Of a stretch of DNA of 64,000 nt, positions 131 through 43,800 are shown piece after piece. Made by a program: the position numbers and the translations under genes. Within the stretch, counting starts at the first letter, position 1. Each line of letters starts with the position of its first letter. The notes under the pieces are model-generated. The model had not been told where the DNA came from, searched no databases, and saw nothing but the letters and a program-made list of their open reading frames with translations. Source of the stretch: Kiritimatiellia bacterium (lineage in GTDB: Bacteria > Verrucomicrobiota > Kiritimatiellia > RFP12 > UBA1067); NCBI GenBank assembly GCA_024405395.1, contig JAKSOW010000001.1, positions 6,277 through 70,276 on the forward strand, in the 5' to 3' direction.

Positions 131-318
131 GGCTCATCTCCTGTTTCGGACTCTCCGCTCTGGTGTGTTTCCGGTCCCGTCCACGGTATGCGTTGCTCTT
201 CGTAGACGCGCAGATTGTTGGCGATGCCCAAAAGCATCGCCAACACGATAATCGCAACCACAACAATCCAATTGAATCGCCACCCCCAAAAAGAAATTTC
301 CAGCCTGCTCATGCGCAT
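127..318 (-). CDS. small single-pass membrane protein (hypothetical)
   Basis: This is part of track ORF 127..375. ATGs at 318 and 312 lie just downstream of the protease stop (333). The product MRMSRLEISFWGWRFNWIVVVAIIVLAMLLGIANNL... has one clear hydrophobic helix followed by an acidic tail. Its stop overlaps the next ATG. Confidence 0.35.
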   Translation of the reverse strand: MRMSRLEISFWGWRFNWIVVVAIIVLAMLLGIANNLRVYEEQRIPWTGPETHQSGESETGDEP

Positions 319-332
319 ATTCCGGGACGACT

Positions 333-6048: not shown

Positions 6049-6078
6049 TGTCTTACATCCTTTTTCAATTTTACTAGC

Positions 6079-6612: not shown

Positions 6613-6639
6613 GATCAGTTCTCCTTTTTTTGTAAGAAA

Positions 6640-9551: not shown

Positions 9552-9553
9552 GA

Positions 9554-10195: not shown

Positions 10196-11685
10196 GGCAA
10201 TGAGGCCAGAACTGTAACGTTGCCTTGACCCTGAATTTTTATTGTTCCTGTGATTTTGCCAGAATTCAAATCCAGACTTAACAAACCGATGACCACATTT
10301 TTCCCAGATTTCCTGAAAACAGGCAACCAGGTCGTTACGCAATCGGTACTCTCAACCAACACACTCTTGGTATTGATGCGAAGTCTATTTGGAAACGTTC
10401 CCTTTATTGAAACTACACCTGTCTTCGCTGCCGCCTTCTTCATTACCAACTGTAGTTCTGTTTCATTTTCAAGGATAATCTTACGGTCCATAACATAAAG
10501 ACTCGCAGGAGACTTTGCTGTCCAAAGTGTATGAGAGAAACAAATTCTACGCGACACACCATCTGTAGATATGAAATTTCCTATCAGCTGCCCTTCGGAT
10601 GTAACAGCTAACAAAAATGAACATCCCACTCCCGTTCCTGAAATTTCCAATATACCATCCGATGACAAACTTTTCCACCCTTTAGAAACCGCCTTCAACT
10701 TGTTATCGACACCATCATACTGGATTTTTGCCTGTCCTTTCTCCGAGAGTGTTAAGGATATTATTCCTTGCATCTCGCCATCCTCTGACAATATAAATCC
10801 ACTTGTCTTCACCGACTTTGTGATCGTGAAGGCAGAACAGACTTTAGAAACTGGAACCACAGTAATCGTTAGGGTAAATGTCTGACTGCCCTTCTCTATT
10901 CCTACATCGCGTTTTTCAGCCAGAATCCAAGAACTGGTAAACGTACCTGCTTTAGTTGGATTTCCTTTAAACAAAACCCGTTTAGAGACAGAATCATAGG
11001 ATACCTTTATTCCCGAAGGGAGTCTTCCAGAAGCCTTCTTTACCTGCACCATCCCACCTACCGTATTGGTTACTTGAAAGTATTCCTCAAAAGGAATATG
11101 CTGAACTGACTCAACAGTTGCATTCCGAAGCGCAAACGCCGGCATTGGCTGATCCATAGGTGCCGATGGTCTAGGAGAATCTAAAGTAGAGGAAAATGCA
11201 AAGCCCGAATCAACCAAAACCTTCTCAACTGAACTAGTCAACTGCAACGCTAGGGGCCCAAGTTTCACCGGCATGTATCCATCGCGACCAACAAAAGCTC
11301 TCTCAATTATCGTTCCATCTGTTTTTGGCCAATAGATGCAAAACAACGGCAACTCATTAATCCACGGATTAATAGATCGTATGAATTTAAGTCCTGCTTT
11401 TGCATCTGAATCGCCATCATGACATACGCTCATTATTATGCGGTGGTCATAAAGCCATTCCTGAAAATCAGCACTATCTAGTGCTGACTTCATCTGATTG
11501 CACATTGGACATGAGCTACGTGCCCACAATAACAACATAGGAGTGCATGTCTCGTTAGCATAGCTAAGACCCTTGGAAAACCCCGCATTCCACTCACCTA
11601 AACATATCTCTCCCCTAGAAAAAGAAAAAGCCCATACACTGAAAACTAGAATGATATTAAAAGACAGTACCAAAATTTTTTTCAT
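10192..11685 (-). CDS. exported thioredoxin-fold (CxxC) + Ig-like domain protein
   Basis: The signal peptide is MKKILVLSFNIILVFSVWAFS. The CxxC context is MLLLWARSSCPMCNQMKSAL. ELPLFCIYWPKTDGTIIERAFVGRDGYMP is conserved with the paralogs. The Ig-like segment is GRLPSGIKVSYDSVSKRVLFKGNPTKAGTF. The start lies 2 nt after the upstream TAG. Confidence 0.8.
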   Translation of the reverse strand: MKKILVLSFNIILVFSVWAFSFSRGEICLGEWNAGFSKGLSYANETCTPMLLLWARSSCPMCNQMKSALDSADFQEWLYDHRIIMSVCHDGDSDAKAGLKFIRSINPWINELPLFCIYWPKTDGTIIERAFVGRDGYMPVKLGPLALQLTSSVEKVLVDSGFAFSSTLDSPRPSAPMDQPMPAFALRNATVESVQHIPFEEYFQVTNTVGGMVQVKKASGRLPSGIKVSYDSVSKRVLFKGNPTKAGTFTSSWILAEKRDVGIEKGSQTFTLTITVVPVSKVCSAFTITKSVKTSGFILSEDGEMQGIISLTLSEKGQAKIQYDGVDNKLKAVSKGWKSLSSDGILEISGTGVGCSFLLAVTSEGQLIGNFISTDGVSRRICFSHTLWTAKSPASLYVMDRKIILENETELQLVMKKAAAKTGVVSIKGTFPNRLRINTKSVLVESTDCVTTWLPVFRKSGKNVVIGLLSLDLNSGKITGTIKIQGQGNVTVLASLP

Positions 11686-11687
11686 TG

Positions 11688-12614
11688 CTACTCTCCTTCA
11701 GAATTTTGCCCTTCTTCTTTTGAAATCGTTTTATCAAAATTTTTTCTCTCTGGTATATCGTACTCTGTGTCGTTTATGATTTTCATACCAGAAATATCTA
11801 TTTCTGGGTCAAATACCTCTGGGTGAAGAGATGCTCGATAGACTGGTATGTCATCAGATTCTTCTGACAAATCAATGTTCTCATTGACCCAGGCTTGTGC
11901 AGCCTCAAACGTCGTATACTCCTCCCCTGTTAGAAAAGAATAAGACTCAAGTGCTACATCCACAACATCTGGATTCTCACTATTAATCAAGGCTACCACT
12001 GACTCAATCGCCGTAAAAGTTGATAGTTCATTCAAATTAAAAGCGATATCTTCCAACATATCACGGTCTTTAATCACACCCATTGTAGCTTCAATAATTG
12101 TAGCCTTAACACGCTCATCTTCGACTTGACCTAAAGCAGATAACCAAAGATCTTGTGCAGCATCACGAACATTTTCATCCTGATCAACAAGAAAAGGCGT
12201 CAACTCAGGAAGGGCTTCCTCATTAAACCAACCAAGTGCCTCAATGGCTCTAAGGCGAACAATCTCATTTGTGGAATTTCCCATTAGTTTTGCAAGTTCT
12301 TGAACTGTAGTGAAATCCTCGGCATTAAGAGCTTTATCAACTTCATCAAACAACCGTCGATCCTGTGGCGAAACCTCATCAGGAATTTGAGATCGATCAA
12401 CTTTTCGTTTTTCCCGCCTTAATGTATTAACTTTAATGCTCGTATCCCTTATCTCAACTAGTTGCTTAACATTTGCCGGTTTGCGCCTTGATATACGCAT
12501 TCCAGTTCCAGATCTATTAGTTTGCCCCTCAGTCTCTTTATTGGTTGAAATATTGAAAATGAAAATGGCTATCGTGAATAAAATTACTGAAACTAAAAAA
12601 ATCTTAATTTTCAT
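11688..12614 (-). CDS. HEAT/PBS-lyase-like repeat protein with N-terminal membrane anchor
   Basis: The ATG at 12614 lies 1 nt after the upstream TAA. The N-terminus is MKIKIFLVSVILFTIAIFIFNIS. VRLRAIEALGWFNEEALPELTPFLVDQDENVRDAAQDLW aligns closely with the 9554 gene product. The tail is acidic. Confidence 0.75.
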   Translation of the reverse strand: MKIKIFLVSVILFTIAIFIFNISTNKETEGQTNRSGTGMRISRRKPANVKQLVEIRDTSIKVNTLRREKRKVDRSQIPDEVSPQDRRLFDEVDKALNAEDFTTVQELAKLMGNSTNEIVRLRAIEALGWFNEEALPELTPFLVDQDENVRDAAQDLWLSALGQVEDERVKATIIEATMGVIKDRDMLEDIAFNLNELSTFTAIESVVALINSENPDVVDVALESYSFLTGEEYTTFEAAQAWVNENIDLSEESDDIPVYRASLHPEVFDPEIDISGMKIINDTEYDIPERKNFDKTISKEEGQNSEGE

Positions 12615-12615
12615 T

Positions 12616-13692
12616 TTACTTCTTCCTTTTACGCGTTGGGAAAACGATACCTTCTCCATAAGGATATTTGATAATCGCTTTCTTACGCAAATCGCGAATA
12701 GTATTCCCGATAACCTCTTCCTGTCGTTCCTTAATCAATTCACGTTTTATGAATTCAGGATCCTCGTCAAATATTATGGCTGTTCGCCAAACAATGCGGG
12801 CAAGATGGCGAGCAAATACTGTTCCATCACCATTCACATCTTCTTTATCGCCCAAAAATTTTACTATCTCTATCCCATCATCGGTTGTCATAACATCTGT
12901 AATCTCACCAGGCTTTAAACATACTATGCTCTCCCAATAAACTGGGGCTTCCATTGAGAAGTCATCAGCCGTGCAAAAACCCAAGTCACCTCCTGGATTT
13001 TTTTCTTCATCCTGTGAAAAATCATCAGCCAGCTCAGAGAAATCTGCACCAGCCCTTGCCCTTGCCAAAACGTTAGTTGCTTCTGCATAAATGTGAATAT
13101 TTGTCTGCACCATACGCGCATTGTATGCAATCGTTTGCGCCACTTGATTTGAAATTGCTTCGGCAGATACCAGCATTTGAGTTGCCAATGCCGTCTTAAT
13201 GTAGTGCTGGCTCCATAAATCCAGCTCTAGCATCTCTTCAATCACATGACAATTAACACCTTTATCAAAGGAACAAAGTTGTTTGAAAGACATTCCTTTT
13301 TTACCATAGCTTAACGCATATTTTTCCTGAAGCTTCAACCTTTCTTCTTTTGTTGGCACAAAATTCATCCGTTTTGCTTCACTTGCCAACAATGCCATCG
13401 GAAAAAAGTTTTGATATTCTTTCTCCCGAAACCGCGTCTTTAGCATTTGAAACTTATGATCTGCTATAGTACCGACTTTCGCTTTGGCAAAACTCAATTT
13501 TGCCATAATTTGACCCTCATATTGTCCCTTGGTCAACTTTATACCATTGACTTCTACAAGCACCGAGTCAGAGTTGAGGCTACTATATGTTTCTCTCGTG
13601 CCTTTCGCACCATAAACATTGTTTATCCCGAAAGTAAGAAACAACAAAACTATACGAACAATTTTAAATGGAGTATAAGTTTTCATTTCCAC
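12616..13692 (-). CDS. exported SurA-N/parvulin-type peptidyl-prolyl cis-trans isomerase
   Basis: The N-terminus is signal-like (IVRIVLLFLTFGINNVYG). The PpiC/parvulin signature region is GGDLGFCTADDF...LKPGEITDVMTTDDGIEIVKFLG. The preceding helical region resembles the SurA/PrsA N-terminal chaperone part. Confidence 0.8.
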   Translation of the reverse strand: MEMKTYTPFKIVRIVLLFLTFGINNVYGAKGTRETYSSLNSDSVLVEVNGIKLTKGQYEGQIMAKLSFAKAKVGTIADHKFQMLKTRFREKEYQNFFPMALLASEAKRMNFVPTKEERLKLQEKYALSYGKKGMSFKQLCSFDKGVNCHVIEEMLELDLWSQHYIKTALATQMLVSAEAISNQVAQTIAYNARMVQTNIHIYAEATNVLARARAGADFSELADDFSQDEEKNPGGDLGFCTADDFSMEAPVYWESIVCLKPGEITDVMTTDDGIEIVKFLGDKEDVNGDGTVFARHLARIVWRTAIIFDEDPEFIKRELIKERQEEVIGNTIRDLRKKAIIKYPYGEGIVFPTRKRKK

Positions 13693-13705
13693 TGCTATCT
13701 CAAAT

Positions 13706-13744
13706 GTAAAAAGCGGGAGGAAGCACTTTCATGCATCCACCCGC
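13706..13744 (-). terminator. candidate rho-independent terminator after the 13779 gene
   Basis: On the minus strand, GCGGGTGGA pairs with TCCTCCCGC (one T:T mismatch) and is followed by TTTTT. A second perfect hairpin, TTATTCGCC-GAAG-GGCGAATAA, lies at 13757..13778 directly after the stop. Confidence 0.45.
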
Positions 13745-13778
13745 CTTGTCTCAATTATTCGCCCTTCGGCGAATAACC

Positions 13779-14657
13779 TTACTTAGCATACGCAGGCATA
13801 TAGGCAGCAACACCCTTAGTACCATTGGCAATCTTCTTGCTGTACTTCAGCTTCCACGTACCATACGCAGCAAGCAGTTCAGAACCAGCAGATTCGGTAA
13901 GATCGTCACAAACCGCACCGAAATCATCGCAGATACCAACAAGACCAGCCCAGTGATAGTCACACTCACGAATGGTAGGATCACCCGTCACCGAACCGGC
14001 AACACTACCAGAAACGTTCTTGACAACACCCTTCTTGACATCAAACGAACCAAGACCAGCGAGCTTAAGGTCGTAATCACTGAAATCAGCCGTTTCAGCA
14101 TTAAAACCACCTGCCCCATCCGAGACATTACGCCAAGCATAGTCAATCCAACCCATGTCACCATTCTCATCCTTGGCGTACACCTGCTCCTTACCAGCGA
14201 AGTCCCAGACCATGGAAACCTTGTTGGCCTTCTTCTCGTAACGATAAACCTCATCGCCAACAGCCGACTTGAAGTCATTAGCCTTGTATTTCTCAACAGT
14301 CTTACCGCCTTCGACAACAGTCTCCGTAGTGAGGTAATCACCAATCACGTGCTGGAAGCCCTTATCGGTACGCCAAATCACGTACTGGGCACCATCAAAA
14401 TCGCAAGCCGACTTGCAGTTCCAAATGATACCCTTCAGCGTACGCTTACCATTCTTGTAGTAGGAGACACACGTTTTCGTCTCACCCAAGCACGCACTAC
14501 CACCCTTGCACTTAAGGGTCTTGGGAGCGAGCGTCTTAAGCTTGATCGTAAGATCATAAGCCTGACAATCCGAACTCGGATCAATCGTGCAGAGGTCACC
14601 TGCAAAAACACCAATACCAGCAGCTGCAACAGCGGCAGCAATCATCAACTTCTTCAT
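13779..14657 (-). CDS. exported Cys-rich protein, unknown family (paralog of 5266..6048)
   Basis: The best start is the ATG at 14657 (MKKLMIAAAVAAAGIGVFAG, a signal peptide), preceded by an A-rich/GGA region. It shares motifs with the 5266 gene (see that entry). The overlapping plus-strand ORF 13731..14732 is judged an antisense artefact. Confidence 0.75.
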   Translation of the reverse strand: MKKLMIAAAVAAAGIGVFAGDLCTIDPSSDCQAYDLTIKLKTLAPKTLKCKGGSACLGETKTCVSYYKNGKRTLKGIIWNCKSACDFDGAQYVIWRTDKGFQHVIGDYLTTETVVEGGKTVEKYKANDFKSAVGDEVYRYEKKANKVSMVWDFAGKEQVYAKDENGDMGWIDYAWRNVSDGAGGFNAETADFSDYDLKLAGLGSFDVKKGVVKNVSGSVAGSVTGDPTIRECDYHWAGLVGICDDFGAVCDDLTESAGSELLAAYGTWKLKYSKKIANGTKGVAAYMPAYAK

Positions 14658-14899
14658 TTTTTTTCCTTTTTTAACCGGGTAGAATCCCGTGCCTTTACGA
14701 CGGTCGATCGTTTCCCAGATGAAAACCGCTGAGATATTCGGCCGGGCCACACTAGTATACCCGTACTTTTTTACAGGAGCTACCCTGATCTCTCACGCTT
14801 CGGGGCTGCATTCAGTAGCCCAGCACGTAACAATCTTTCGACCATTACTCCTAGGGTACTGGACTAATCCAGCCACCCTTCCACGGGAGAAACGCGCAT

Positions 14900-14928
14900 A
14901 TCATATCAAAAGTCGTTTTGCCTTGCAA
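14900..14928 (-). promoter_or_regulatory. candidate sigma70-type promoter (TTGCAA-17 nt-TATGAT) for the 13779 gene
   Basis: On the minus strand, TTGCAA is at 14928..14923 and TATGAT at 14905..14900, with a 17-nt spacer. This implies a 5' leader of about 235 nt before the ATG at 14657. Confidence 0.4.
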
Positions 14929-15046
14929 GTGGGAAATCAATTTTTTTTTCATTTTCTTTGTCACAACGCCACCAGGTGGATTTGCCTTGTAAGACTATTT
15001 AATGAGCGCACCATACACAATGCAAATGCAAAACTCTCTTGTTCAT

Positions 15047-16829: not shown

Positions 16830-16894
16830 GTTACGTCTACTTTCGTCGGACGGCTAATAGTATGCTCTTTTTTCCGCCCAAAAGCAAGCATGAG

Positions 16895-17001
16895 TTATAA
16901 ACAGTTATAAACAGCCTTATAAACAATATGAGTTATAAACAACCTTTCATAACCATGTTTATAACCTACTTATAAACAACTGTTTATAACCTTGTGTATA
17001 A
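16895..17001. repeat. array of eight TTATAAACA-type 9-mers (operator or DnaA-box-like cluster)
   Basis: Forward TTATAAACA lies at 16895, 16905, 16917, 16933 and 16970. Reverse TGTTTATAA lies at 16956 and 16981. A degenerate TGTGTATAA lies at 16993. The segment 16970..16989 is a perfect inverted pair separated by 2 nt. The array sits 65-170 nt upstream of the XRE gene start. Confidence 0.85.
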
Positions 17002-17112: not shown

Positions 17113-18375
17113 TTATTCGCCTTTGGCCTTGCAGCCTGGATACACAAAGAGTCTGCAATCGATCGGTCCGTTGAAGAACGGCACGCGCGCAATGTAATAG
17201 AGTTCCACAAGCTTCGCAAGATCCGGGTTTCCGGTGATCAAGCCGCCCGTCATTCCCGCACACTTGTCATGCATGAACGTGCCAATGCGCGTATAGATCG
17301 GCTCCAGCTCGGCGGCATCGCCCAGACGAATGCCATACTCGGGATTGAAGAACACCACTCCGTTGGGTGAACTCTTGGAACAGTCAGCCTCAGGGTTCGC
17401 CAAAGGCGGCACTGGCGTGTCGCCAAAATCGCAGGCCTTGAATGTGATGTACTCGTTGACGCCCGCTGCGTGCGCATTGATCTGCGCATTCTGAACCGCC
17501 TCGGGAGAGATGTCCGTCGCGTAGATAGGCGGCAGATTGTCCGTCTTCTCGTTTTCGGCGGCCTCCAGGACCATATCCTTCCAGATTTGCTCGGGCGTGA
17601 CGCCAAAACGCTGACGCGGAGCCGAACGCGGAGCCGTTTCGCCGGGAATGATCTGGTTCCACCCCTTTATCGACATGAAGGCAAAACGGCTGCGCAACGA
17701 GCCCGGCGCACGGCCGATGGCGGCCAGTGCCGCCTCAATGGCCGGCGTGCCGGAGCCGCACATCGGGGAAATGAAAGGCGTCTTGCGATCCCACTTGAGC
17801 GCATCGATGCAGGCGGCCGCCAAGGTCTCCTGCATAGGCGCCGAGCCCGGAATCTTGCGGTAGCCGCGTTTGGAAAGCGGGGAACCGCTTGTATCCAAAT
17901 AGATGATCACACGCCGATCTTCCCAATGCACGAAAACGGCGGCACCAAGGTCATAGTCGGGACCCGAGTCCGGACGCCGCCCCACCTTGCTGCGGATTCG
18001 GTCGGCAATGGCGTCCTTGGTCACAAGCGCCGGCAGACGCGTATCGCGCACGGTGTCATTATGGACAATCGACGAAACCGAAAAATAGCCATCCGCATCA
18101 AAGAGGTTTTCCCAGTCAATGGAGGCCACCTTGTCGTACAATTCGCGGATATGGCGGCAAGTCCCCCGCAGGAGCGGCACCAGGACACGGTGTGCCGTGC
18201 GCAGACGAAGATTAAGGCGCAGCATATCCCGCATGGCACCGCGAACGACAACGGTGTTGTCACTCTTGTCGATCACCTTGTATCCCATGCCCTCAACTTC
18301 CTGAATCGTCCAGGGAGCCAGATGCTTGGCGCACGAAATGATGATGGGATAGTTCTTATCTGTCCACAGTTTCAT
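17113..18375 (-). CDS. THUMP-domain class I SAM-dependent RNA methyltransferase (RlmL/RlmK N-half-like, COG0116 type)
   Basis: The best start is the ATG at 18375, preceded by AGGAG; the track ORF extends further upstream without support. The SAM motif I-like sequence is ISPMCGSGTPAIEAAL. The motif IV-like sequence is FFNPEYG, a variant of NPPY. Confidence 0.8.
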   Translation of the reverse strand: MKLWTDKNYPIIISCAKHLAPWTIQEVEGMGYKVIDKSDNTVVVRGAMRDMLRLNLRLRTAHRVLVPLLRGTCRHIRELYDKVASIDWENLFDADGYFSVSSIVHNDTVRDTRLPALVTKDAIADRIRSKVGRRPDSGPDYDLGAAVFVHWEDRRVIIYLDTSGSPLSKRGYRKIPGSAPMQETLAAACIDALKWDRKTPFISPMCGSGTPAIEAALAAIGRAPGSLRSRFAFMSIKGWNQIIPGETAPRSAPRQRFGVTPEQIWKDMVLEAAENEKTDNLPPIYATDISPEAVQNAQINAHAAGVNEYITFKACDFGDTPVPPLANPEADCSKSSPNGVVFFNPEYGIRLGDAAELEPIYTRIGTFMHDKCAGMTGGLITGNPDLAKLVELYYIARVPFFNGPIDCRLFVYPGCKAKGE

Positions 18376-18479
18376 GGTATCTCCTACTAAAGGGCACCCT
18401 TTGGCCCGATATTTTGGACAAGAGGCATTCCAGAAGCGTTTTTCTTCCAGAATGCCCTTTATTTCAGCGAATATTACTA

Positions 18480-19574
18480 TCAGCTGATGCGCAGCGGCAT
18501 CATAACGTACAGGAACGGCACCGAACACTTGATCAATGCCGGCGAAGAGCCGTTCTTGAGCTCGATGTAGACTTCATCCTCGTCAATGGCCTTCAGCGGA
18601 TCCATCACAAACTGGGGATTGAAGACAATCTCGATCGTCTCGCCGTCATACTTGATCGGCACCGTATCACGGGCCGCACCCACATCGGCGGCGGCTGACG
18701 CCACGGTGAGGCGATTGGACTCAAACGTGAGACGCGTAGAATTGGACTCATCCATCGTCATGACGCTGACGCGGTCAAGGGCCTCCAGCAGAAGCTTGCG
18801 CTCCACGGTGACGCGCTCGGTGCAGCCGGTGGGGATGACCTGACGATAGTTGGGATAGACATCATCCAGAAGCTTCGAGTAGATCTGCGTGTCGCCCAGA
18901 TTGAAGGACACCTGCGAGCGTTCCACGGTGACGCGCACATCGCCATCGGACGAAAGCGAACGCTGAAGCTCGGAGACCACCTTCGTGGGGAGCACGATGT
19001 CCTTCTCCGCATCGGCGGGGAATTCGACCTCATGCTCGACCAAGGCCAAACGCCGCCCATCCGTGGCCACCATGGTGAGCTTCGCGTCCTTGAAGCTCAT
19101 CAGAACGCCCTTCAGGGTCTTGCGCGTATCGTCCTGCGAGGCCGCGTACGAGGTCTTGCGCAGCATTTCGCGAAGCGCCATCTGCTTGATGATGTAGGCA
19201 AACGTGCCGGAATCCTTGGGGAGCTGCGGGAAGTCGGCGACATTCATGCCGGCGATGTTGAACACGGCGGAACCCGCCGACACAACCGCCTTGTCCTCCG
19301 CATCGGTCTCGAGCTCAACGGGGCCTTCCGCCGCCTTGGCGATCGTGGCCGCCAAAAGCTTCACGGGGAGCGTGGTCGCGCCTTCAGCCAGCACTTCGCA
19401 GGGAACGACGCTGCGGATCGAAATGTCAAGATCCGTGGTGGTGAGGAAGAGCTGCTTGTCCTTCGCCTCGATCAGCACATTCTGGATGATCTGCAGTGTA
19501 CCCTTTGACACCACGATGTTCTGAACCTTCTTGAGGCCTTCCAGAAACTTGGAACGTATAATCCTGATTTTCAT
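18480..19574 (-). CDS. dnaN: DNA polymerase III beta sliding clamp
   Basis: The 364-aa product starts MKIRIIRSKFLEGLKKVQNIV...LFLTTTDLDISI, a typical DnaN N-terminus. The gene lies immediately downstream of dnaA. Confidence 0.95.
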   Translation of the reverse strand: MKIRIIRSKFLEGLKKVQNIVVSKGTLQIIQNVLIEAKDKQLFLTTTDLDISIRSVVPCEVLAEGATTLPVKLLAATIAKAAEGPVELETDAEDKAVVSAGSAVFNIAGMNVADFPQLPKDSGTFAYIIKQMALREMLRKTSYAASQDDTRKTLKGVLMSFKDAKLTMVATDGRRLALVEHEVEFPADAEKDIVLPTKVVSELQRSLSSDGDVRVTVERSQVSFNLGDTQIYSKLLDDVYPNYRQVIPTGCTERVTVERKLLLEALDRVSVMTMDESNSTRLTFESNRLTVASAAADVGAARDTVPIKYDGETIEIVFNPQFVMDPLKAIDEDEVYIELKNGSSPALIKCSVPFLYVMMPLRIS

Positions 19575-23875: not shown

Positions 23876-25843
23876 TTAGTGATGTCCCCTTTTGATGATG
23901 ATGGCCAGAACCGAAATGTCGGCAGGATTGACGCCCGGAATGCGGCCCGCCTGTGCCAAAGTCTCCGGACGATACTTCTTCATCTTTTCCCGGCTCTCAT
24001 ACCTGATGGCCGGACACTTGTCGTAATCCAGCCAATGGGGAATCTTGATGTTCTCGTCGCGCTTGGCCCGTTCGGCGGCAATGTTCTCCTGGCGAATGTA
24101 GCCGGCGTAGTGGTGACGGATTTTCACCTGTTCAACCACAGGATCAGGAACCTGAATGGAAGAGCCGCCGATTTCGATCTCGGCGTTAGGGTTACCGTCA
24201 GGCTGAACAGACAATACGCGTTTCAGCTTTTTGTTGTCCTGCTCGATGGTGTTGATCATATCGGCAAACGATTTGGTTTCCTCCCGAATGACCTTCGGCA
24301 GAATGCCTACCCTTTCCGCTGCTTCCTGCAGGCGGTAGCGGGCATTGTCCTGACGCAGGATCAGGCGGCGCTCGGCACGTGATGTGAACATGCGATAAGG
24401 TTCATCGGTTCCCTTGGTGACCAAGTCATCGATCAATACGCCAATGTACGCATCCTGGCGGCTGATCACAAGCGGGCTTTCATGCTTGACCTTGAAGGCG
24501 GCATTTATTCCCGCCATGATGCCCTGGGCGGCAGCTTCCTCATAACCCGTTGTCCCGTTGATTTGGCCGGCAAAGAACAGACCGGATATACGCTTGGATT
24601 CCAGCGAATGCGTCAGCTCACGGGCGTCAATTCCATCATACTCAATGGCGTAGGCATACGCAAGGAATTCGGCGTGCTCCAGACCTGGAACGGAATGGAC
24701 CAGTTCTTCCTGAACCTGACGAGGAAGAGAGTTGGATAGACCATTAGGATAGATGATCTGCCCTGCACGATCTTCGGGTTCAAGGATGACATGATGACCA
24801 TCAACACCCGCGAATCTGACTATCTTATCCTCAATCGATGGACAATACCTGACGCCCGTTCCACTTATCATTCCACCATAAAGAGATGAATCCTTAAGAT
24901 GCGAACGTATGATTTCATGGCTGATTGGCGTTGTATGGGTTGCCCAACAGATAGCTTTAGCGGAATTCAAAGGCCACGGAGCGAACAAATCCGCATTGTT
25001 CCACGTGGAACAGTCCGTTGAACTGGATTCTGATGCGGAATTGGCATTGTTCCACGTGGAACAAAGACCAGAAATGGGTTCAGATGAAGCTAAATCATGG
25101 TTGTTCCACGTGGAACAATTGATTCCGGGTGTTAAACCATGGGAAAGGAGGTATCTGGTTCTGAGGGAGAAATAAGGCGGATTATCCTCTCCTTCCTGCG
25201 GTGTACACACCGAAAAGTCGCAGCTTGATGCCTTTAAGCGTGGCGGTGTACCTGTTTTAAGCCGAATAAGCTGAAAACCGAGTTTGGAAAGCGAATCGGA
25301 TAGCTGATTGACGGCTGGCCGCCCATCTCCGCCAGATTCCGTGCATTCCTTGCCAATGAATATCCGCCCTCGCAAAGCCGTTCCGGAGGTTATCACCAAA
25401 GCCTCACAGTTGATCAGTCCGTTCTTCTCGGTTCTGATTCCGGTTACGGTGTCATGATTGGTTATCACCTCAAGGGCGGCATCCTCGATCACGGTCAGGT
25501 TTTTGGTGCTGTTGACAACCAACTGCATGCGCCGTGTGTATTCGCTCTTGTCGCATTGTGCTCGTGTTGCCTGCACGGCTGGACCACGGCTCAAGTTCAA
25601 TGTCTTTTCCTGGAGCGAAGTGAGGTCGGTGTTGAATCCCATTTCGCCGCCCAACGCATCCAACTCAAACACCAGATGACTTTTGGCAAGTCCGCCAATG
25701 GAAGGATTGCAGGGCATACGCGCAATGGCAGACTTGAGCCCCGTAACCAAAAGGGTGTCAATGCCCATGCGTGCAGCGGCCAATGCCGCTTCGGCTCCGG
25801 CATGGCCTCCACCAACCACAACAATTGAAAAATCTGTTTTCAT
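23876..25843 (-). CDS. mnmG: tRNA uridine-5-carboxymethylaminomethyl modification enzyme MnmG (GidA), with an internal repeat insertion
   Basis: The FAD motif is [19 protein letters not shown]. Other conserved stretches are [12 protein letters not shown] and [19 protein letters not shown]. The segment between PPYFSLR and ICWATHTT is about 68 aa long. Confidence 0.95.
24997..25117. repeat. three perfect copies of the 16-nt palindrome TGTTCCACGTGGAACA inside mnmG
   Basis: Copies lie at 24997..25012, 25048..25063 and 25102..25117, with spacings of 51 and 54 nt (in frame). Each encodes CSTWNN in the mnmG frame. The sequences between the copies are unrelated to each other. Confidence 0.9.
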
Positions 25844-25933
25844 TGCAGATATTATAACATGCTTTAAGACAAAATATAAGAGATAACAGATAAAAGATAA
25901 ACGAGGGCCTCTGCTTTTCTCGATGAAATCTTT

Positions 25934-26174
25934 AAGACAGGATTTACAAGATTAACAGGATTTAGAAGCCTGACCGATTGAGATAATTAATGTGGCGATT
26001 GCAAGTCGTGGTCGGTGGGTTCATTGAAACCAGTCCTGTCTGTTTAATAGGCGTAGGTTCAGGTAGGACAACATTGACGATGCCGCCGCTAATGAGATAT
26101 TGCAGTATCCTCAATAAATAAAGCAACATCGGGGAAATCCTGTTAATCCTGTTAATCCTGTCGGAAATCAGGAT
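25934..26174. repeat. inverted clusters of ACAGGATT(T/A) / (A/T)AATCCTGT 9-mers flanking ~165 nt
   Basis: ACAGGATTT lies at 25937 and 25955. Three contiguous copies, AAATCCTGT-TAATCCTGT-TAATCCTGT, span 26135..26161. AAATCAGGAT follows at 26165. The arms GACAGGATTTACAAGATTAACAGGATTT and GACAGGATTAACAGGATTAACAGGATTT (reverse complement of the right arm) are near-identical. Confidence 0.7.
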
Positions 26175-27191
26175 CTGCTCTGTCAGTCCAGTTCTCAGTT
26201 AGTTTCCGTTAAGATTTTGACTGAAAAGCCCGCCAGTAGAATTCATCAGTCAAAAACCTGAATCGCCTAAGCAATCAAGGAAAGGGGCTGGAAAAATCCC
26301 GGAATCATGAGCGTCATATTCACCTCGACAAAGGAGTGCGTGATTTGAGAATTGAGGGCTAAAAGGCGAATGTGTCTTGTCCAATCATATCGAAAACATC
26401 GCGATTGAATTGTCCGGAAGGGTTCATTCTCAATCGTTTTCCGTGGCCGCCAGATGGCGGTTTCCGTGTCCTTCCATGGTCTTCTACCTGGCGAAACAAC
26501 ATTATTCAACATATCAAATAACTTCTGGCTTTTTGGGAAAATGCAGATGCATTTGCCATACTGGAGATCCTCTCGTTCCGCTAAAACTTCAATGATCAAA
26601 TGATCCGATGAGATTCACTATCAACAGTTATTCACATTTATGAAACGAGCGATTATGCGACAAACAGAAGAGGCCCAAGTACGGGAAACCTTGATTTTAC
26701 GGGCTTTTATGCTTGTGCCGAAAAAGTCAACAGAAAGATATGCAAAATACTGTCATAATTATGAACTACTTATGAACAGGTTTTAGGCAACGGTTCAGAA
26801 CTATTGACAGGTGATTTCTGCAATGTAATTCACATTATCGGCCCATAAGCATGGAAGGGCCGAATGTTATGACGGAAACGGAAAGGAAACCCCTTATGAT
26901 CTGGGGTGTGGTCGTCAAAACGGAACTCACCGTAGAGCATCATCCCCTGCGGCAAGGCTCAGTACCTGAAGCATGGGGATTTGGTATCAGAAGCAGGAAT
27001 TCGTAGTATCTGAGTCAAATGAAACGGTATCTGAGATGAATTCCATTGTCTGGGTAGGATTGCAGTACATGTTCCATGACTGTTTCATTTGGAATGTCGG
27101 AAAAGGGGCTGAAAGCGTCTCATCTCAGAGTGTAATGCGTTATGCGTCAAATTGGCGGCAACGGAGCAGTTGCGAATACAACAAATTAAAA

Positions 27192-27221
27192 TTGTATACA
27201 TATTAAAGGATATGCTATACT
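27192..27221 (+). promoter_or_regulatory. candidate promoter TTGTAT-18 nt-TGcTATACT for the beta-helix gene
   Basis: The extended -10, TGCTATACT, lies at 27213..27221 within an AT-rich tract. An AGGAGG RBS lies at 27241, and the ATG is at 27253. Confidence 0.4.
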
Positions 27222-27252
27222 TTAAGCATCGTCAACCGCAAGGAGGAAAGAA

Positions 27253-28620
27253 ATGGGTCTTGTCAATAAAGTAGCTTGCATGGCATGCGCCATGTTGGGA
27301 GTCGCCGTGACCGCAGAAGCTGCGGACATCTATGTTTCGTTGGATGCCGGAAAGAACAAGAATCCCGGAACGAAGGAATCTCCGCTCAAGAATCTCTGGA
27401 AGGCGCTCGAGAAGGCGGAACATGGCGATGTCATCCATGTGGCCGAGGGCATCTATCCCGGCAAGATGAAGCAGAGCTGGTTCAAGATCGACAAGGCCGT
27501 CTCCATCATCGGCGGCTATGCGAAGGACTTTTCGGCCCGTCAGCCGCTCGTCCACAAGACGATGTTCCAGGCGCTGAACGACAACAACGACAAGAAGGGC
27601 AATGGCCTTGGCGTGTTCCACGTCGAGTTCGACCACACCAAGCCCGAGCCCGACGGCGTCAACATGGTTTTCGACGGTCTCATCTTCGATGAGGGCTTCG
27701 CGAATTCCTACCATGAGACCAAGGGCAAGCCCGAGGGGTTCGACACCGGCATGTGGCTGGAGGGCCCGGCATGGAACAAGAACCGCGACAAGTTCCCGTC
27801 CCCCAATCGCTATCTCGTCTATTCGGCTACGCAGAACCGTGCCACGGGCAATGTGACGTTCAAGAACTGCTCGTTCGTCAACTCCGGCAACATTGCGCTC
27901 AACTTCACGTGGTACAAGGGCAAGGTCACGGTCGAGAACTGCGTGTTCTGCAACAACCGCATGATTGGCGCCAACGTGCTCTGCTCGTCGGCGGTGCCGA
28001 TGGACGGCCCCAACAAGCCTCGTGCCGGCTGGAAGCCCGTCGTCGAATGGGAGTTCGCGCACAACACGGTGCTCTTCACCTGGAGCCGCCTCAACGATCT
28101 CGGCGACATGGGCTTCGGCATCCGCAACAACACGGGCGTCAAGGCCAACATCCATGACAACGTGATCGGCCTGAACGTCCTCACGGGCTTCGACAACACG
28201 AAGGGTGCCGGCAAGACGAAGATCACCAACCTCGACAACAACATCTTCTTCCTCAACCGCGAAAGCGATGTCCAGATGACGGTCTCGCCTTCGATCGCCA
28301 AGGTTCGTGTGGATGGCTTCGAGGATCTCGAGGGCACGGATGGCATCGAGTCCATCGAGGACAATGCGGACCTCAAGGATCCGTCCGTGTTCAAGGGCCG
28401 CCTCAATGCGAAGTACCTGAATTCCTTCCTCTCGATGAAGTACTCCGAGAAGACGAAGCTCGACGAGGGCAAGTGCAACGGGCTCCGTTCCGTCCTGGGT
28501 CTGCCGCTGCAGGGCACGATCACGACTAAGTGCGACATGTTCTGCAACCGCTATCCGCTTGAGGATGCCCTCAAGCTCTTCGGTGCGATCGCCGGCAAGG
28601 GTGCGCAGGACATCAAGTAA
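27253..28620 (+). CDS. exported right-handed parallel beta-helix protein (DUF1565/pectate-lyase-fold-like)
   Basis: The signal peptide is MGLVNKVACMACAMLGVAVTAEA. The sequence ADIYVSLDAGKNKNPGTKESPLKNLWKALEKAEHGDVIHVAEGIYPG is the usual N-terminal cap of DUF1565-type beta-helix proteins. Repeated N-rich turns such as VTFKNCSFVNSGN and VENCVFCNN follow. Confidence 0.8.
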   Translation: MGLVNKVACMACAMLGVAVTAEAADIYVSLDAGKNKNPGTKESPLKNLWKALEKAEHGDVIHVAEGIYPGKMKQSWFKIDKAVSIIGGYAKDFSARQPLVHKTMFQALNDNNDKKGNGLGVFHVEFDHTKPEPDGVNMVFDGLIFDEGFANSYHETKGKPEGFDTGMWLEGPAWNKNRDKFPSPNRYLVYSATQNRATGNVTFKNCSFVNSGNIALNFTWYKGKVTVENCVFCNNRMIGANVLCSSAVPMDGPNKPRAGWKPVVEWEFAHNTVLFTWSRLNDLGDMGFGIRNNTGVKANIHDNVIGLNVLTGFDNTKGAGKTKITNLDNNIFFLNRESDVQMTVSPSIAKVRVDGFEDLEGTDGIESIEDNADLKDPSVFKGRLNAKYLNSFLSMKYSEKTKLDEGKCNGLRSVLGLPLQGTITTKCDMFCNRYPLEDALKLFGAIAGKGAQDIK

Positions 28621-37853: not shown

Positions 37854-40800
37854 ATGGGAAACTATGGTCTCAAATCCGGTTTGGGTGGCCGCCTTGCGGC
37901 TGCCCTCTGCCTGTTTGCGACGGCGGTGCACGCCGCCTCCGCGACCTTTTCCCATGATGCCAATGCCACGGTGGCCGATTCCCGGCGCCTGACGGAGGCC
38001 ACCACGATTGCCGTCGCCAAGGATGCGCGTGTCGTCTACTCCGGCGTGTTGTCGGGGCCCGGCTCGTTGCGGCTGACGGGTGGTGGCACGCTGGTGCTGA
38101 CGGGCGCCAACACGTTCACGGGCGGCGTCACGGTTGAGGCGGGCTACCTCGTGTGCTCCAACGCCTTGGCCCTGGGCACGGGCACGGCAACCATCATGGG
38201 CCAGCGGGACGACTATTCGGGCCCCTGCGAGATTGGCTTCTGGGGTGTTGGCCCCGGCCGTTCGGATTCGGTGACGTACGCCAATCCGATTCGCGTGACG
38301 GGCTCCTCGACGGCCCTCTATCCGGCGCTCTACTTCTTCGGGCAGAACTGCGTCCTGAACGGCAGCGTCACCGCCGAGCAGGACCTTGTCTTCTACGAAG
38401 ACCACAATGCCGCCAAATCCATCAATAGCGCCAACTGGGACCGTTATCAGCATGTGCTTTCGGCCACCTTCAACGGTCCGGTGACCGCCGCCGGAATGAT
38501 CGGCTATCGCGGCATGACGCGCTGGGCCTTCAACGGCAAGGTCACGACCCCGCTTTTCCACACGGCGCTCACGCGCCCGAAACGTCCGGACGACATTGAC
38601 TCGACTGACGGCAACAACAATGCCCATGGCGCCTTCCTGCTCAATGCGGCCAACGCCATCGGCGAATTCAGGAATGCGCGTTCGCCCGTTTACCTGGGCG
38701 TGGAGAATGCGCTTGCGGGCTCGGTCCTTTCCTGGGAGAAGAACACCTCGCTCTGCACGGTGGGCTTCTTCTACAGTCAGCTTTACGGCGGCAGCTACCG
38801 CAACCAGCGTGTGGCCGGGCTTTCCAGCGTGTCGGCACCCGTGGCGGCCAGCTACGATTGGCGGGTTCATGGCGCCTCTTCGGCGAATCGGTTTGTGCTG
38901 GCGGGCACAGGCGCAGCGGCGGAGACTTTCGCGGCCAGTGCCGCCCTCACGGGATCGATGTCCTTCATTGTGGATGCGAGGCCCGACTACTCGCAGACGC
39001 TTCAAGACCGCCACCACACGTTTTCGGGCACGCTCGCCGTCTCCAACGGAACCCTGAACGTGGAACGTGGTTCGTTCTCCAATGTGACGGCGCTTGTGGT
39101 GGGCGCACACGGCACCCTGCGCCTCGACACGCCGCTCTCGGGCGGGCAGGTCTTCCCCAAGCTGTCTTCGCTGGAGATCGTGAAGGGCGGTGTGCTGGCC
39201 GTGCCCGAAACCATGCTGCTCACCACGAAGACGCTCATTGTGAACGGCACGAAGAAATCGCCCGGTCTCCATTACGCCGAAAGCGTGCCCGGCTTCACGG
39301 GGGCGGCGATAGTCTGCCTCAATGCCGACGGCTCCATGCCGGTGGTGGGCGATCTGACGGGCGCTCAGACGATCCGCGAACCGTTTGCGGCTCTGGGTGA
39401 CCGCATGTGGCGGCTTGCCGCGGGCGAGACGCTCACGTTTGAGGGAACGCTTCGCCGTGTCGAGGGCATGGTCACGGTGGTGAGCCCCAAGAACACCGCC
39501 AATCCGGCACGCGTGGTGCTCAAGGGCACCAACTCGATCGACGGGGCGCTCGTCACCACGGCGGCGGTGCTGCAGGTCTCCGGTCTGCTGGCGAACTCCT
39601 TGCGTCAGGACCAGGGCCAGGCCGCCAATCGCGGCGGGAGTGTGGTCACGGTGGATGGCTATCCGGGGGGCGGCTATCTTTTCGTCTCCAATGCCGTCAT
39701 CGAAAAGCCGGTCTATCTGCATGGCTCGGGCTATGGCATTCTGAGGAGTGCCGCCGCCACCACCACCATCCTGAAGGGCCACGTCGCCTGGCCCACGCCC
39801 TGGCCCGGCTTTACGGCGGCGAAGGATTCGGAGATCGTCTTCGAGGGCGGCTTCACGAGTGGCCACACCCTGCGCACAAACGGACAGGGCACATTCCGTG
39901 TGCGCAATACGCCGGTGACGGCCACGGCGAGCGTGGGCTGGAACATCGGCGGCGGCACCGTGGCGTTGGATGTGTGCGGCAACAAGTTCAGCTATCTGTG
40001 CGCCGGGCACTACAACGGCGACACGGCGGCGATTGTGTGCAACGCCGATCGGGCCTTTGACGTCACCGCGAACGCGGGCCTGGTGAACGGCTGCTGGTGG
40101 AACGATGGCTACAGCGGATTCTCGGTGATGACGTCTGGCTCCGGAATCGTGGACCTGAAGGGCACGGTGCAGCAGGTGAACAAGTACGCGGGCAGCAGCC
40201 GTTCGACCCTGCGGGGCGAGGCGGGCGCCCGGCTGGAGATTCTCCAGCAGACGCCGGACTCGCGGCTCAAGGCCCCCGAGCTCTACTTCGCGTCCGCGAT
40301 CGAAGGCGAGGTGACGGTGGCGATGTACGGCCCCGGCAGACTCGTCCTCACCAACCGCGTATTTGAGACGACGGGCGGATTGGAGGCCACGAACGGCATT
40401 GTGGAGATTGCCCGGGGGGCGCGTTGGCTGGGCACGGGTGACGTGACCTTGCGTGGCTCGGCCAGGCTGGTGCTGCATGAGCGCGACCAGCTGGCCCCCT
40501 CGGTGCATCTGCGGATCGGTGAGGCGGCGAAGATCGAGATTCCCGCCGGCACGTCCCTGACGGTAAAGACCGTGGACGTGTGGGATGGCACGGGCTGGCT
40601 GCCGCTGAAGACGGCCGGCAGCCATGCGGCGGGCGACGGCGGTATGCTTGCGGGATTCATCACGGGCGGCGGCACGCTGAACATTGTTGGCGAAGAGGTC
40701 GCCGCAGGCGTGGCGATGCCGCTGGAGTGGAATGTCACCTATCCGGTGGATGTGCCGTATGAGGTGGAGATCGACACGGCCAAACTTCATGCGCTGGGCG

Positions 40801-43800
40801 GCATTGCCGCCAACACGGGCTTCCGTGTGTTCGCCACCGTGGCGGGCGCCATGCGCGAAGTGGGCGTCAGCTGTCTGGCGGGACGCGTCCCCGGCAGGGT
40901 CGCCCTGCGCTTCTCGGTGCCGGCCGGGACGACGGCCCTGACGTGTCGGGCGGGCGTGGGGCGGCTGGAGCTGCTGGACGCACAGACGGCCGACAATCTC
41001 TTTGCGGGCGTGTTGGCGTCCGCCACGGGATGGGTATGCGACAAGACCGTTTCCTGTGCTGTGCGCACGAATGGTCTGTCCATCGCCTCGACGGGTGCGG
41101 GCAACTATTATGCGAAGTGCAGCGTGCCCGTGCCCGCCGATTGGCGGGGCAAGAGCGTGCGCCTGGAAATCGACGCCACGAGCGAGAGCGTGCTGCCGTG
41201 GGGCGGCTTCATCCGCCTGTGGCAGTATGACGCCAACGGCACGCGCCTGCCCGAGAGTGTCTCCGATGTGCGTTGGACGAGTCACATGCGCCCGCCGGAG
41301 AAGCTCGCCCAATATCGCGAGAATGGCCGCATCCATCCAGACTGTGCCACCGTGGAGGCGCGTTTCGAGGTGCGGGGCACGTCGACGGCCTTTGACCTCT
41401 ATGGTCTGCCGCTGGCGGATGAGGAGGACACGAAGGCCCGCCTGCTGGTTTCGCGTCTGGTGCTGCGGCGGGCGGCGGAATTGCCGTTCCCGAAATATGA
41501 CGACCGCTTCTTCTCCGCGGGCGTCTCGGGGGATGCGGGCGATACGGCGCTTCGCCTGGGCGGCGAAGACCACAACGGCTTCTTCTACGCCACGCACAGC
41601 CAGGCGGTTTGGAGCGAGGGAATGGATTCGCGTGATGAGGCGCAGAATTTCTTCCCGGCGGGAGATGGCACCGTCGAGGCGTGGTTCAGGGCCGATGCCT
41701 GGCCAAGCAAGGAGACGTATCTCTTCCAGGGGTTCCAGGGCTACTCGGCCCAGAAGTCCGCCAATGGGCGAAGCGAACTCTTCTCGTTGCGGTACACGCA
41801 TTCCTCGAAGCGCCTTTACCTTTATATGAAGGATCGGCAGAACACGGTGTTCTCAGCGCAAGCCACACAGGCGCTGCCGGTGGGCGAGTGGGTGCACATC
41901 GCCGCCCAGTGGAGCGTCAACGGCCAGGCCAGGGTCTTCGTGAACGGCAAGGAGGCGCTGGCACGCGACATCACGGGCTTCAGGCCGGTTGACCTCAGTG
42001 CCGAGCAGTATCCCGATGAGGAGATTGTGACGGAGTTCTTCCTTGGCTCGACTTCCGCCTCGGCCCGCAACACCGAAACGGCGGAGAATGCGGGCGCGCC
42101 TTTCTTCCAGGGGGCCGTGGATCAGCTGCGCGTCTCCACGGGCACGCGCTATGCGGGCGCGTTCACGCCGGCCAGACGTCATGTGCCGGATGCCGCCACA
42201 CGTGCGCTCTTCGCGTTCGACCGATCCTACGATGGCGAGTCGGGCGGCGGATGCCGATTCATCCGCGGTTCGATCCGCTCGTTTGCGGACCGTGTGCGGC
42301 ACACGCTTGACCTTGGCGGCAATGAGGTTCCGTACTGGCCCGCCGAGATCCTGCCCGAGAACGACCACCGCCAGGTCCTGAACATCGACAACTATCCCGA
42401 TCTGCCGACGGTGGACGAATTCCTCTCGGCCCGCCGAGCCACAAATGCGGTCTTCGATGTCTCCCCGGGCGCCACGTTCACGTTGAATCTTCCGGGCACG
42501 GTCTACCGCGACTACGTGGAGATCGCGAACACGGGAACATCGCCGCTGCTCTACCCCACGGTCGTCAACGCCGGCGAGATCGATCCCCGCAGCTTTGGCG
42601 ACATCCGCGACACGCTGGGGCTGGCCGAGCTGGATGATCGGGCATGCGCCAACAAGATTTTCCAGTTCGTGCTGGGCGCAAGCGACTACTTCATGAACCA
42701 CAGCGCCTTCTTTGCGCCCGGCACCGACACGCCGGGCGATGTGGAGTACCAGGCACTCATGATGCTCAACGGCTACTGCGGCTTCGAGTGCGGCCCGCTG
42801 AACAGCATGACGAAGAATCTCTTCACCTGTTCGGGCGGGCTGCCCTCTTCGCAGACGGGCGGCTATGGCCACAGCTTCGAGCAGGTGTTCTATGACGGCA
42901 AGAACCACATCTACGATCTGTCGGCCCAGAAGTTCTTTCCCGCGATGGACAACGAGACGGCGGCCTATCTTGAGGAAGCGGGCGATCAGCCGGGCATCTT
43001 CCACCGGATCGGCGGCAATCCCGACCACTTCATCCGCAAGTCCCGCCGTGGTGCCGATGCGTCTTCGCCGTCGTTCAGCGAGAAGGTGGCGATGAGCCTC
43101 AATCCTGGCGAGCGCCTGCGCGTGTGGTTCGACAATGACGGCGAAGGCAACGACCTCCAGTGCAGCAAGAGCTCCGTGCAGAACGATTCCGCCCTCCACA
43201 AGGAGAACTACGACGACCGCTGCCATGCCGTTGCGGGATCGGCCGGCAGCATCTGGCGTGTGCACCGCCACTTCCCGCACTACGGCAATGGATTCCTCGT
43301 GTACGAAGGACCGGTGGATGTGGCGAATCCCGCCTTTGCCGCCTCGACGAAGTCCTCTGCCGTCTATGCGGTGAAGAGCTGCTATCCCATCACCGCGGCC
43401 GAGTACTCGGCCAAGCTGCAGGATGGCACCTATGCGCCAATGCAGCTCTCCACCGACAGGGGCGCAACCTGGCGTGCGCTGCCGGCTGGCAAGGTGCGCT
43501 ATCCCGTGCGTGCGCGCACCGAATACCTTGTGCGGGCGATGGCAGATCCCGCGAAGGTCGTGCGTTTCTCGGCCATCACCGAGGTGCAGGTGAACGTGCG
43601 CATCTTCACGGGCGGCGTGCACGCCGGGGCCAATGCCCTGACCTTCAAGGCCAATGGCGGAGAGGCGGCTCGCGTCACGCTGGGCTGGCGTGAGCCGGCG
43701 AAGCGCCTGGAGATCCGGGGCGGCGTCTATTCGGGCACGATCCCCGGCAGCGAACGGCAGCTCGTGCTGCTTGATCCGGCCAGCACGCTGACGCTTGACG

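Follow-up and report, generated by a model that had tools for sequence, protein, structure and literature searches.

Contiguous short repeats that are bound by small dimeric proteins include the omega heptads of pSM19035, the ParR/parC iterons and the MetJ metboxes. The cyanobacterial STRR repeats are tandem 7-nt units, intergenic and often inverted, that have no known function; we know of no reported link between STRR and GxxExxY proteins. The 23S rRNA intervening-sequence elements consist of a small ORF located between inverted repeats that are able to form a long stem. The GxxExxY proteins and the "four helix bundle/IVS" proteins are both small and are present in multiple copies in many environmental bacteria.

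The closest described analogue of the element analyzed here is REPIN-RAYT, in which REP doublets are combined with a REP-associated tyrosine transposase (PMC3116915, PMC3337134), although the enzyme class and the repeat architecture are different. The element was detected in a 64-kb stretch of DNA (hereinafter the window, i.e., the whole stretch that was analyzed) and, judging by its sequence, is probably one ORF-less, MITE/REPIN-like copy of a dispersed inverted nonamer element that is linked to GxxExxY nucleases.

The inverted nonamer element and its neighborhood

The nonamer ACAGGATTW has five exact matches in the 64-kb window, with a shuffle expectation of 0.45 (0 of 100 shuffles reach five), and all five belong to the stretch that the first-pass annotation described as inverted clusters of a 9-mer, with two copies on the left facing three on the right (Table 1). 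The clusters are real, but that count missed one unit: ACAAGATTA, with a single mismatch to ACAGGATTW, lies between the two exact left units, and therefore the element consists of 3+3 contiguous 9-mers, three per side. The terminal repeats are imperfect and inverted, as described, but measure 33 nt each rather than ~28 nt; the arms are 88% complementary and 171 nt apart, in an element of 237 nt, and form the longest short-range inverted repeat anywhere in the window. The related sequence reported at the right end is present as well. In addition, GAAATC is found just outside the left arm (25925-25930), and a second GAAATC on the right side overlaps the right arm. The AAATCAGGAT unit and GAAATC outside the arms could be a chance direct repeat or a remnant of a further arm; multi-arm arrays of alternating orientation are known at another locus, L081. 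No clear target-site duplication was found at the window copy.

The bracketed sequence had been said to contain no ORF, which is essentially right. Two mechanical ORFs (55 and 43 aa) are present within the element; they were compared with the GxxExxY profile only, with a best E of 14, that is, the profile gives no signal of a decayed GxxExxY pseudogene inside the window copy. With its terminal inverted repeats, small size and lack of a transposase ORF, the element resembles a MITE. A profile derived from 213 arms of unrelated metagenome contigs matches the window at the two arms only (E=1.5e-9 for the left arm and 1.3e-10 for the right arm), and both arms, which converge, contain the T-rich lead, the G and the three tandem ACAGGATTW units. 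The window copy is a member of this arm family, which is dispersed across unrelated loci and phyla.

Table 1. Coordinates of the features discussed in the text (positions refer to the sequence named in the first column)
Sequence	Feature	Position	Strand	Remarks
Window	DnaA-box-like cluster	16893-17001	both	seven exact TTATAAACA and one TTATACACA (1 mismatch)
Window	dnaN	18480-19574	-	
Window	dnaA	19861-21297	-	
Window	mnmG/gidA	23876..25843	-	Pfam GIDA, E=1.4e-139
Window	heptad tandem repeat	25866-25901		AAGATAA-like, ~5 copies (TTATCT-type on the mnmG strand)
Window	left arm	25931..25963	+	lead TTTAAG, then ACAGGATTT (25937), ACAAGATTA (25946, 1 mismatch), ACAGGATTT (25955), head-to-tail
Window	exact ACAGGATTW, left	25937, 25955	+	
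Window	interior spacer	25964..26134		171 nt; no credible ORF, no GxxExxY remnant detected
Window	right arm	26135..26167	-	read on the - strand: lead TTTCCG, then ACAGGATTA, ACAGGATTA, ACAGGATTT
Window	exact ACAGGATTW, right	26135, 26144, 26153	-	
Window	extra degenerate unit AAATCAGGAT	26165-26174	+	TCAGGAT, 1 mismatch; opposite orientation, just beyond the right arm
Window	conserved intergenic segment	26687-26833		
L007, L004, L009	counterparts of the conserved intergenic segment	3496-3641, 4424-4558, 3553-3721		in the order of the contigs
Window	paired TTATGAAC boxes	26757-26778		relatives have TAGATAACTAGTAGATAA there
Window	divergent DUF1565-like ORF	27253..28620	+	far boundary of the 1.4-kb intergenic region
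L007	inverted arrays	3838-3900 and 4054-4108		heptad ACATGAG/GTCTCAT
L066	inverted arms	4494-4513 and 4695-4716		GGTTAAGGTGTG-type
L109, L173, L130, L107, L081	long whole-arm arrays	13355-13840, 9640-10350, 455-630, 6550-6910, 4150-4400		in the order of the contigs
L143, L098, L105, L117	other period-9 arrays	6922-7018, 555-610, 59-85, 6578-6604		in the order of the contigs; others exist
L096, L133, L136, L158, L180, L185	~200-nt palindromic family	2617-2820, 3608-3811, 15-216, 9567-9759, 4596-4798, 1108-1250		in the order of the contigs
L099, L186, L142	orthologous site 1	3952-4071, ~455-560, 985-1064		in the order of the contigs
L142, L099	orthologous site 2	3541-3617, ~1290-1400		in the order of the contigs

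The element is embedded in a 1.4-kb non-coding region, with mnmG/gidA on one side and a DUF1565-like ORF on the other; the mnmG start codon is 87 nt away from the start of the left arm (25931) and 93 nt away from the first nonamer (25937). A Na+/H+ exchanger-EIIA gene, dnaA and dnaN are located farther to the left, with 4.6 kb between the element and dnaA, and the cumulative GC skew reaches its lowest value at ~23-25 kb in the window. Given the dnaA/mnmG context and the GC-skew minimum, an origin role was a fair initial guess, and the first-pass annotation accordingly listed iterons for a replication initiator or a partition protein among its models. More generally, the nonamers might be locus-specific host sites, namely iterons, a partition centromere or operators for an mnmG regulator. 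This location notwithstanding, such a role is highly improbable. Neither ACAGGATTW nor an arm-profile match is found at the orthologous locus in any of the nine Kiritimatiellae relatives with shared mnmG-NaH-dnaA-dnaN synteny, so that the motif fails the conservation check that had been proposed. None of the first 80 metagenome loci with the arm is near dnaA or mnmG; identical arms are present at many loci unrelated to replication; and no par or rep gene adjoins the element. Many copies, which had been named as evidence of a mobile repeat rather than origin iterons, do exist across other genomes. The DnaA-box and iteron candidates were also rejected on the grounds of sequence, with at most five of the nine positions in common between ACAGGATTW and TTATCCACA, along with the lack of conservation in relatives and the dispersal of the arms elsewhere.

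In contrast to the nonamer, a DnaA-box-like cluster located 9 kb from the element, downstream of dnaA-dnaN and of the 17113-18528 ORF, is conserved. Matches of the TTATAAACA type number 12, compared to 3.5 expected; the gene order mnmG-exchanger-dnaA-dnaN-ORF is kept among the Kiritimatiellae relatives, as is the TTATAAACA cluster downstream of the conserved gene block. This cluster probably represents the DnaA-box region of oriC, in which the box would be specific to the lineage. The window comes from a Kiritimatiellae bacterium, whose DnaA protein is 69% identical to its closest match and up to ~55-58% identical to those of rumen/gut MAGs; its domain IV reads DRKHTTIFYG, the corresponding E. 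coli sequence being GRDHTTVLHA.

Two of the relatives, L007 and L066, also possess an inverted repeat, of other units, that brackets ~185-220 nt upstream of mnmG, as might be expected of resident host sites. However, their arm sequences are quite different from those in the window, and no comparable inverted element is present upstream of mnmG in L004, L005 and L006. The L007 and L066 arrays could reflect an insertion hot spot, replacement, or concerted change of a resident element. Most likely, the window element has no dedicated host function at this locus and sits in a large permissive intergenic region upstream of mnmG. For the window, a tempting mis-annotation is thus removed: the inverted 9-mers near mnmG/dnaA are not origin iterons.

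Several other features of the window can be mentioned. The space that separates the left arm from the mnmG start contains a heptad tandem repeat; shortly downstream of this repeat, a TATAAT adjoins the start codon. Upstream of mnmG, conservation in relatives is detectable in a single intergenic segment (window 26687-26833), which has counterparts in three relatives and might be a second DnaA-related or regulatory site. There is a break in composition: positions 1-15000 have 40-52% G+C and a GC skew of about -0.2, with all genes on the - strand, and positions 27000-64000 have 60-67% G+C. The left 15 kb might have been acquired as an island, or might be a block of genes with a strong strand bias. 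Two very long ORFs are located on the + strand (37854-48383, 3509 aa, and 49537-55584, 2015 aa).

The arm family and the GxxExxY gene

A metagenome scan with the exact 23-nt pattern ACAGGATTWACAGGATTWACAGG finds matches in at least 120 stretches of 35-71% G+C from peat, soil, sediment, lake, termite gut and rumen; four of the matches listed are collagen-like coding repeats. The 36 pattern matches in viral contigs, many of them in giant-virus bins, may by analogy be collagen-like coding repeats, as at L087 and L138. The arm is also present on plasmids of Spirosoma oryzicola (Bacteroidota), Ca. Thiodictyon syntrophicum (Gammaproteobacteria) and Rhizobium rhododendri, with seven matching places, each arm being counted separately, on the 485-kb Thiodictyon plasmid. 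Thus, copies at unrelated loci, a hallmark of MITEs, are seen across metagenomes and on single plasmids; the 64-kb window holds one copy.

The arms share the consensus ttT[a/g/t]G ACAGGATTa ACAGGATTw ACAGGATt. Among the matches listed, 201 of 287 arms contain exactly three units, and adjacent arms form 79 convergent and 17 divergent pairs; solo arms are common. The spacer, again among the matches listed, is at most 30 nt in 35 pairs, 31-60 nt in 19, 61-120 nt in 12, 121-250 nt in eight (8/79, the class of the window copy) and 264-576 nt in five. Gene-less spacers are continuous from 2 to 215 nt. These lengths bear on the possibility of an invertible promoter switch, in which a site-specific recombinase would flip the ~170 bp between the inverted repeats. 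The geometry of the window copy, 33-nt inverted repeats 171 nt apart upstream of mnmG, fits such a switch, and the interior includes a weak sigma-70-like match (26074-26101). However, most spacers of the family, at 2-60 nt, are too short to invert, no recombinase gene is found near the element, and the promoter-like matches around it are not above the shuffle expectation, which makes a switch extremely improbable.

All five arm pairs with 264-576-nt spacers (L097, L109, L128, L130 and L173) enclose a ~125-aa GxxExxY ORF, which fits closely between the arms in either orientation. The enclosed protein matches TIGR04256 (E down to 5e-42) and PF13366 (PDDEXK_3), a family of 16,276 representative clusters (at 50% identity) at E<=0.001, and residues D66, E76 and K78 are invariant among 31 homologues. 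An AlphaFold (AF2) model with a pLDDT of 86 resembles Cas4 and lambda-exonuclease-type PD-(D/E)XK folds; no sequence relative was found among solved structures. The protein is predicted, from the conserved residues and the model, to be a minimal PD-(D/E)XK nuclease domain in which the D...ExK motif is intact. Some members of the family (P0241-P0245 etc.) comprise two GxxExxY domains fused in tandem and are ~250-280 aa in length. The function of the GxxExxY family is listed as "Unknown" (PMC3424549). In the searchable literature, which leaves subscription-only papers outside, "GxxExxY", "PF13366" and "TIGR04256" are mentioned only in passing, and neither a match for the repeat sequence nor a description of the association between the arrays and GxxExxY was found.

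GxxExxY is the only gene seen between arms; longer versions with the same arms encode nothing else. Forms intermediate between the gene-bearing and the ORF-less ones exist, namely a truncated GxxExxY ORF in L130 (E=5.5e-33) and a GxxExxY remnant in the 129-nt spacer of L154 (E=2.9e-5). When ORFs up to 4 kb away from the first 80 metagenome loci were clustered all against all, GxxExxY was the only recurrent neighbor. Most arm copies have no GxxExxY gene inside 4 kb. None was found in the 64-kb window or in ~160 kb of the relatives' loci, and GxxExxY relatives in viral contigs are limited to one locus.

Homologues chosen from protein similarity alone provide an independent test of the link between arrays and proteins. 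For subfamily A, all four proteins that are ~70% identical to the L128 protein (L233 from Spirochaetota (Alkalispirochaeta), L237 and L239 from Planctomycetota, and L242) have ACAGGAT-type arrays on both sides. Subfamily B, from Bacteroidota, was seeded with a Bernardetia plasmid gene flanked by CACAGAG/CTCTGTG nonamers; in four of four further genomes (L244, L245, L247 and L249), the arrays are of the CACAGAG type, with no ACAGGAT. A more distant gene from Gemmatirosa is accompanied by ACGCGGATC nonamers, and the L226/viral-contig gene by CGCAGAT/CGCTGAT arrays. Altogether, the arms flank the gene at nine type-A and five type-B loci, of which only 4+4 are independent: five of the nine subfamily-A loci are circular evidence because the motif was their search route. 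Given that the array counts partition cleanly, the nonamer type tracks the GxxExxY subfamily at all eight independent loci. A very large family without an assigned function, PF13366/TIGR04256, is hereby tied to a defined DNA motif architecture that follows its subfamilies, and the link leads to a testable hypothesis on what the GxxExxY proteins recognize. In L242 (a contig of GCA_902386115.1, labelled uncultured archaeon), the cassette is inserted so that it separates hsdS from hsdM in a type I restriction-modification system and is accompanied by several type-A hairpins on either side.

Dispersal is also apparent from ORF-less families of ~110-200 nt, whose members are 77-98% identical within the element only, with unrelated flanks. 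One such family from peat metagenomes is palindromic, ~200 nt long and 84-98% identical, again with unrelated flanks. Its ends carry the direct repeat CTAAG/CTAAG (CTTAG/CTTAG in L136), a candidate target-site duplication, and its nonamer arrays are central rather than terminal. Of the three models in the first-pass annotation, a MITE-like element is the closest, given the dispersed arms and the ORF-less families. A conventional MITE would be moved by an ordinary transposase (e.g., of the IS5/PIF or IS630 type), and the GxxExxY gene would be cargo picked up incidentally or a favored target of insertion. This explanation is compatible with the terminal inverted repeats, the small size, the dispersed copies, the candidate CTWAG/TWA direct repeat in one subfamily and the TA dinucleotides that often adjoin the arms. 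Nevertheless, it appears quite unlikely, considering that the 4-kb surroundings of the first 80 loci contain no recurrent transposase, that no gene other than GxxExxY is found between the arms, that the nonamer type follows the GxxExxY subfamily, and that the nonamer arrays are internal in the very subfamily with the candidate duplication.

Sequence constraint, turnover and a possible mechanism

Either strand of the window element folds into a structure closed by a long stem (z=-3.9 and -5.0). This fold raises the question of a structural hairpin, in which the arms would pair as RNA (an RNase III site, an mRNA 3'-end stabilizer, an insulator or a REP-like structure) or as a DNA cruciform, and GxxExxY would be a passenger. 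The neighborhoods are in part compatible with such a role: 34 of the 38 classifiable ORF-less doublets are downstream of at least one gene (22 have co-directional, 12 convergent and 4 divergent neighbors, the window copy, between divergent genes, being in the minority class), the cassettes occur within co-oriented gene strings, and in some subfamilies the inverted repeat reaches well past the nonamers. Most cassettes have the same orientation as both neighbors, which is likewise compatible with the arms acting at the RNA level. The variable positions of the arms, however, do not behave as expected of a stem. They form complementary pairs in 31 of 80 cases, with 34.5 expected from composition, and in 22 of 80 cases, with 31.9 expected, and the mismatches (75 G.U-type, 81 A.C-type and 321 other) show no G.U bias. 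Furthermore, the sequence is kept across phyla and across 35-71% G+C, which a pure stem does not need, and solo arms are frequent. On the whole, a purely structural role is unlikely.

An intrinsic terminator is rejected because the T-run precedes each arm on both strands and so is on the wrong side of the hairpin; no terminator-like site was found in 25700-27400. A search of Rfam with the window and 11 related loci yields nothing at gathering scores and nothing meaningful at E<=10. With no match to a curated model and no covariation that would keep the stem, a structured RNA (an Rfam family, a 6S-like RNA or a riboswitch) was dismissed. A CsrA sponge with CAGGAUG-like repeats was dropped as well: the arms occur in Bacteroidota, which to our knowledge have no CsrA, and the type-B arrays lack GGA. 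Reading the arm as a sigma-70 promoter (T[T/A/G]GACA-N16-CAGGAT) is possible for type A and is not transferable to type B.

Because the variable positions of the two arms do not covary, the constraint is on the sequence of the nonamers, not on their pairing, and this conservation suggests that a protein recognizes them, as opposed to their forming a stem. Accordingly, the early suggestion of a recombinase or regulator binding array is plausible insofar as it implies a protein-binding array.

At two orthologous sites, related genomes differ in the type of array (Table 1). At site 1, L099 has a type-A element, L186 a CGCAGAT-type element, with flanks 87-89% identical, and L142 none. At site 2, L142 has type A versus the CCAGGACGC type in L099, and the flanks align right up to the arms. 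This pattern mirrors the situation of the window, L007 and L066. Simple transposition does not account for the presence, in related genomes, of unlike repeats at one intergenic position.

Whole-arm arrays in tandem or alternating orientation, with up to ~14 copies and periods of ~33-95 nt, are found beside GxxExxY genes. Contigs with type-A arms also contain other triple arrays of period 9 (e.g., CACGAAG, CGCAAAG, CGCCAAG and AAGAAGATT), some of which form inverted pairs or directly adjoin type-A arms. These arrays suggest that many nonamer "types" are present inside one genome.

The preferred reading, a dispersed nonamer element linked to GxxExxY nucleases, can be cast as a mechanism. The functional unit would be the arm, composed of a T-rich lead, a G and three head-to-tail ACAGGATTW units, with two arms normally facing each other; a complete cassette consists of two arms tightly placed around the gene for the ~125-aa GxxExxY protein. 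The nonamers are the putative recognition sites of the cognate GxxExxY protein, perhaps with each 9-bp unit binding roughly one protomer. The arms might then be spread or homogenized through cleavage and ensuing repair or transposition. ORF-less doublets would arise through internal deletion and subsequently persist or propagate in trans, as REPINs do by means of RAYTs and MITEs by means of a parent transposase. Action in trans must be assumed because of the many arm copies without a GxxExxY gene in the vicinity.

A broader proposal, which we put forward only tentatively, is that the GxxExxY/PDDEXK_3 proteins and the three-tandem-nonamer arrays constitute a previously undescribed class of nuclease-driven selfish elements, in which each subfamily reads its own nonamer "code" and spreads, homogenizes or replaces arrays by cleavage and templated repair. 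Nuclease-driven array replacement, if true, would explain why different array types occupy the same site in related genomes. Such elements would also account for many of the intergenic short tandem-repeat hairpins of environmental bacteria, which are a source of spurious ORF calls.

Comparison with known systems

Similarly to the omega, ParR and MetJ sites, the arrays form blocks, direct and inverted, in which units of 7-11 bp follow each other head-to-tail, and the constraint falls on their sequence and not on pairing. Those sites, however, adjoin the genes under their control and are specific to a plasmid or a regulon, whereas the arrays described here are dispersed and mostly lack a nearby cognate gene. 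The heptad (ACATGAG) arrays of L007 at the orthologous site are reminiscent of STRR, from which the element differs in unit length and sequence. With the 23S rRNA intervening-sequence elements, it has in common a small ORF enclosed by inverted repeats, but the copies are intergenic rather than inserted in rRNA, and the protein belongs to another family.

The element resembles MITEs, such as Correia/NEMIS, RUP and Nezha, in that it is small and ORF-less, with terminal inverted repeats and copies at unrelated loci, and in that one subfamily has a possible short target duplication. Unlike for MITEs, no DDE-transposase parent was found and GxxExxY is not a known transposase; moreover, the arm sequence is common to several phyla rather than species-specific, and the spacers are as short as 2 nt.

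As in REPIN-RAYT, the repeats are short and conserved, form inverted doublets in most cases, with spacers of variable length, are scattered through intergenic regions and exist as singlets too; a small associated gene is itself located between inverted repeats, and the repeat type goes with the protein type. The differences concern the protein, which is a PF13366/TIGR04256 member of the PD-(D/E)XK type instead of a HUH/Y1 (IS200-like) transposase, and the repeat, which comprises three tandem nonamers instead of an imperfect palindrome with a GTAG tetranucleotide, without detectable selection for pairing between the arms. Also unlike in REPIN-RAYT, a given repeat type, together with ~70%-identical proteins, is shared by different phyla, suggestive of horizontal spread. 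Taken together, this comparison points to a REPIN/RAYT-like relationship in which a PD-(D/E)XK nuclease would take the place of the HUH transposase.
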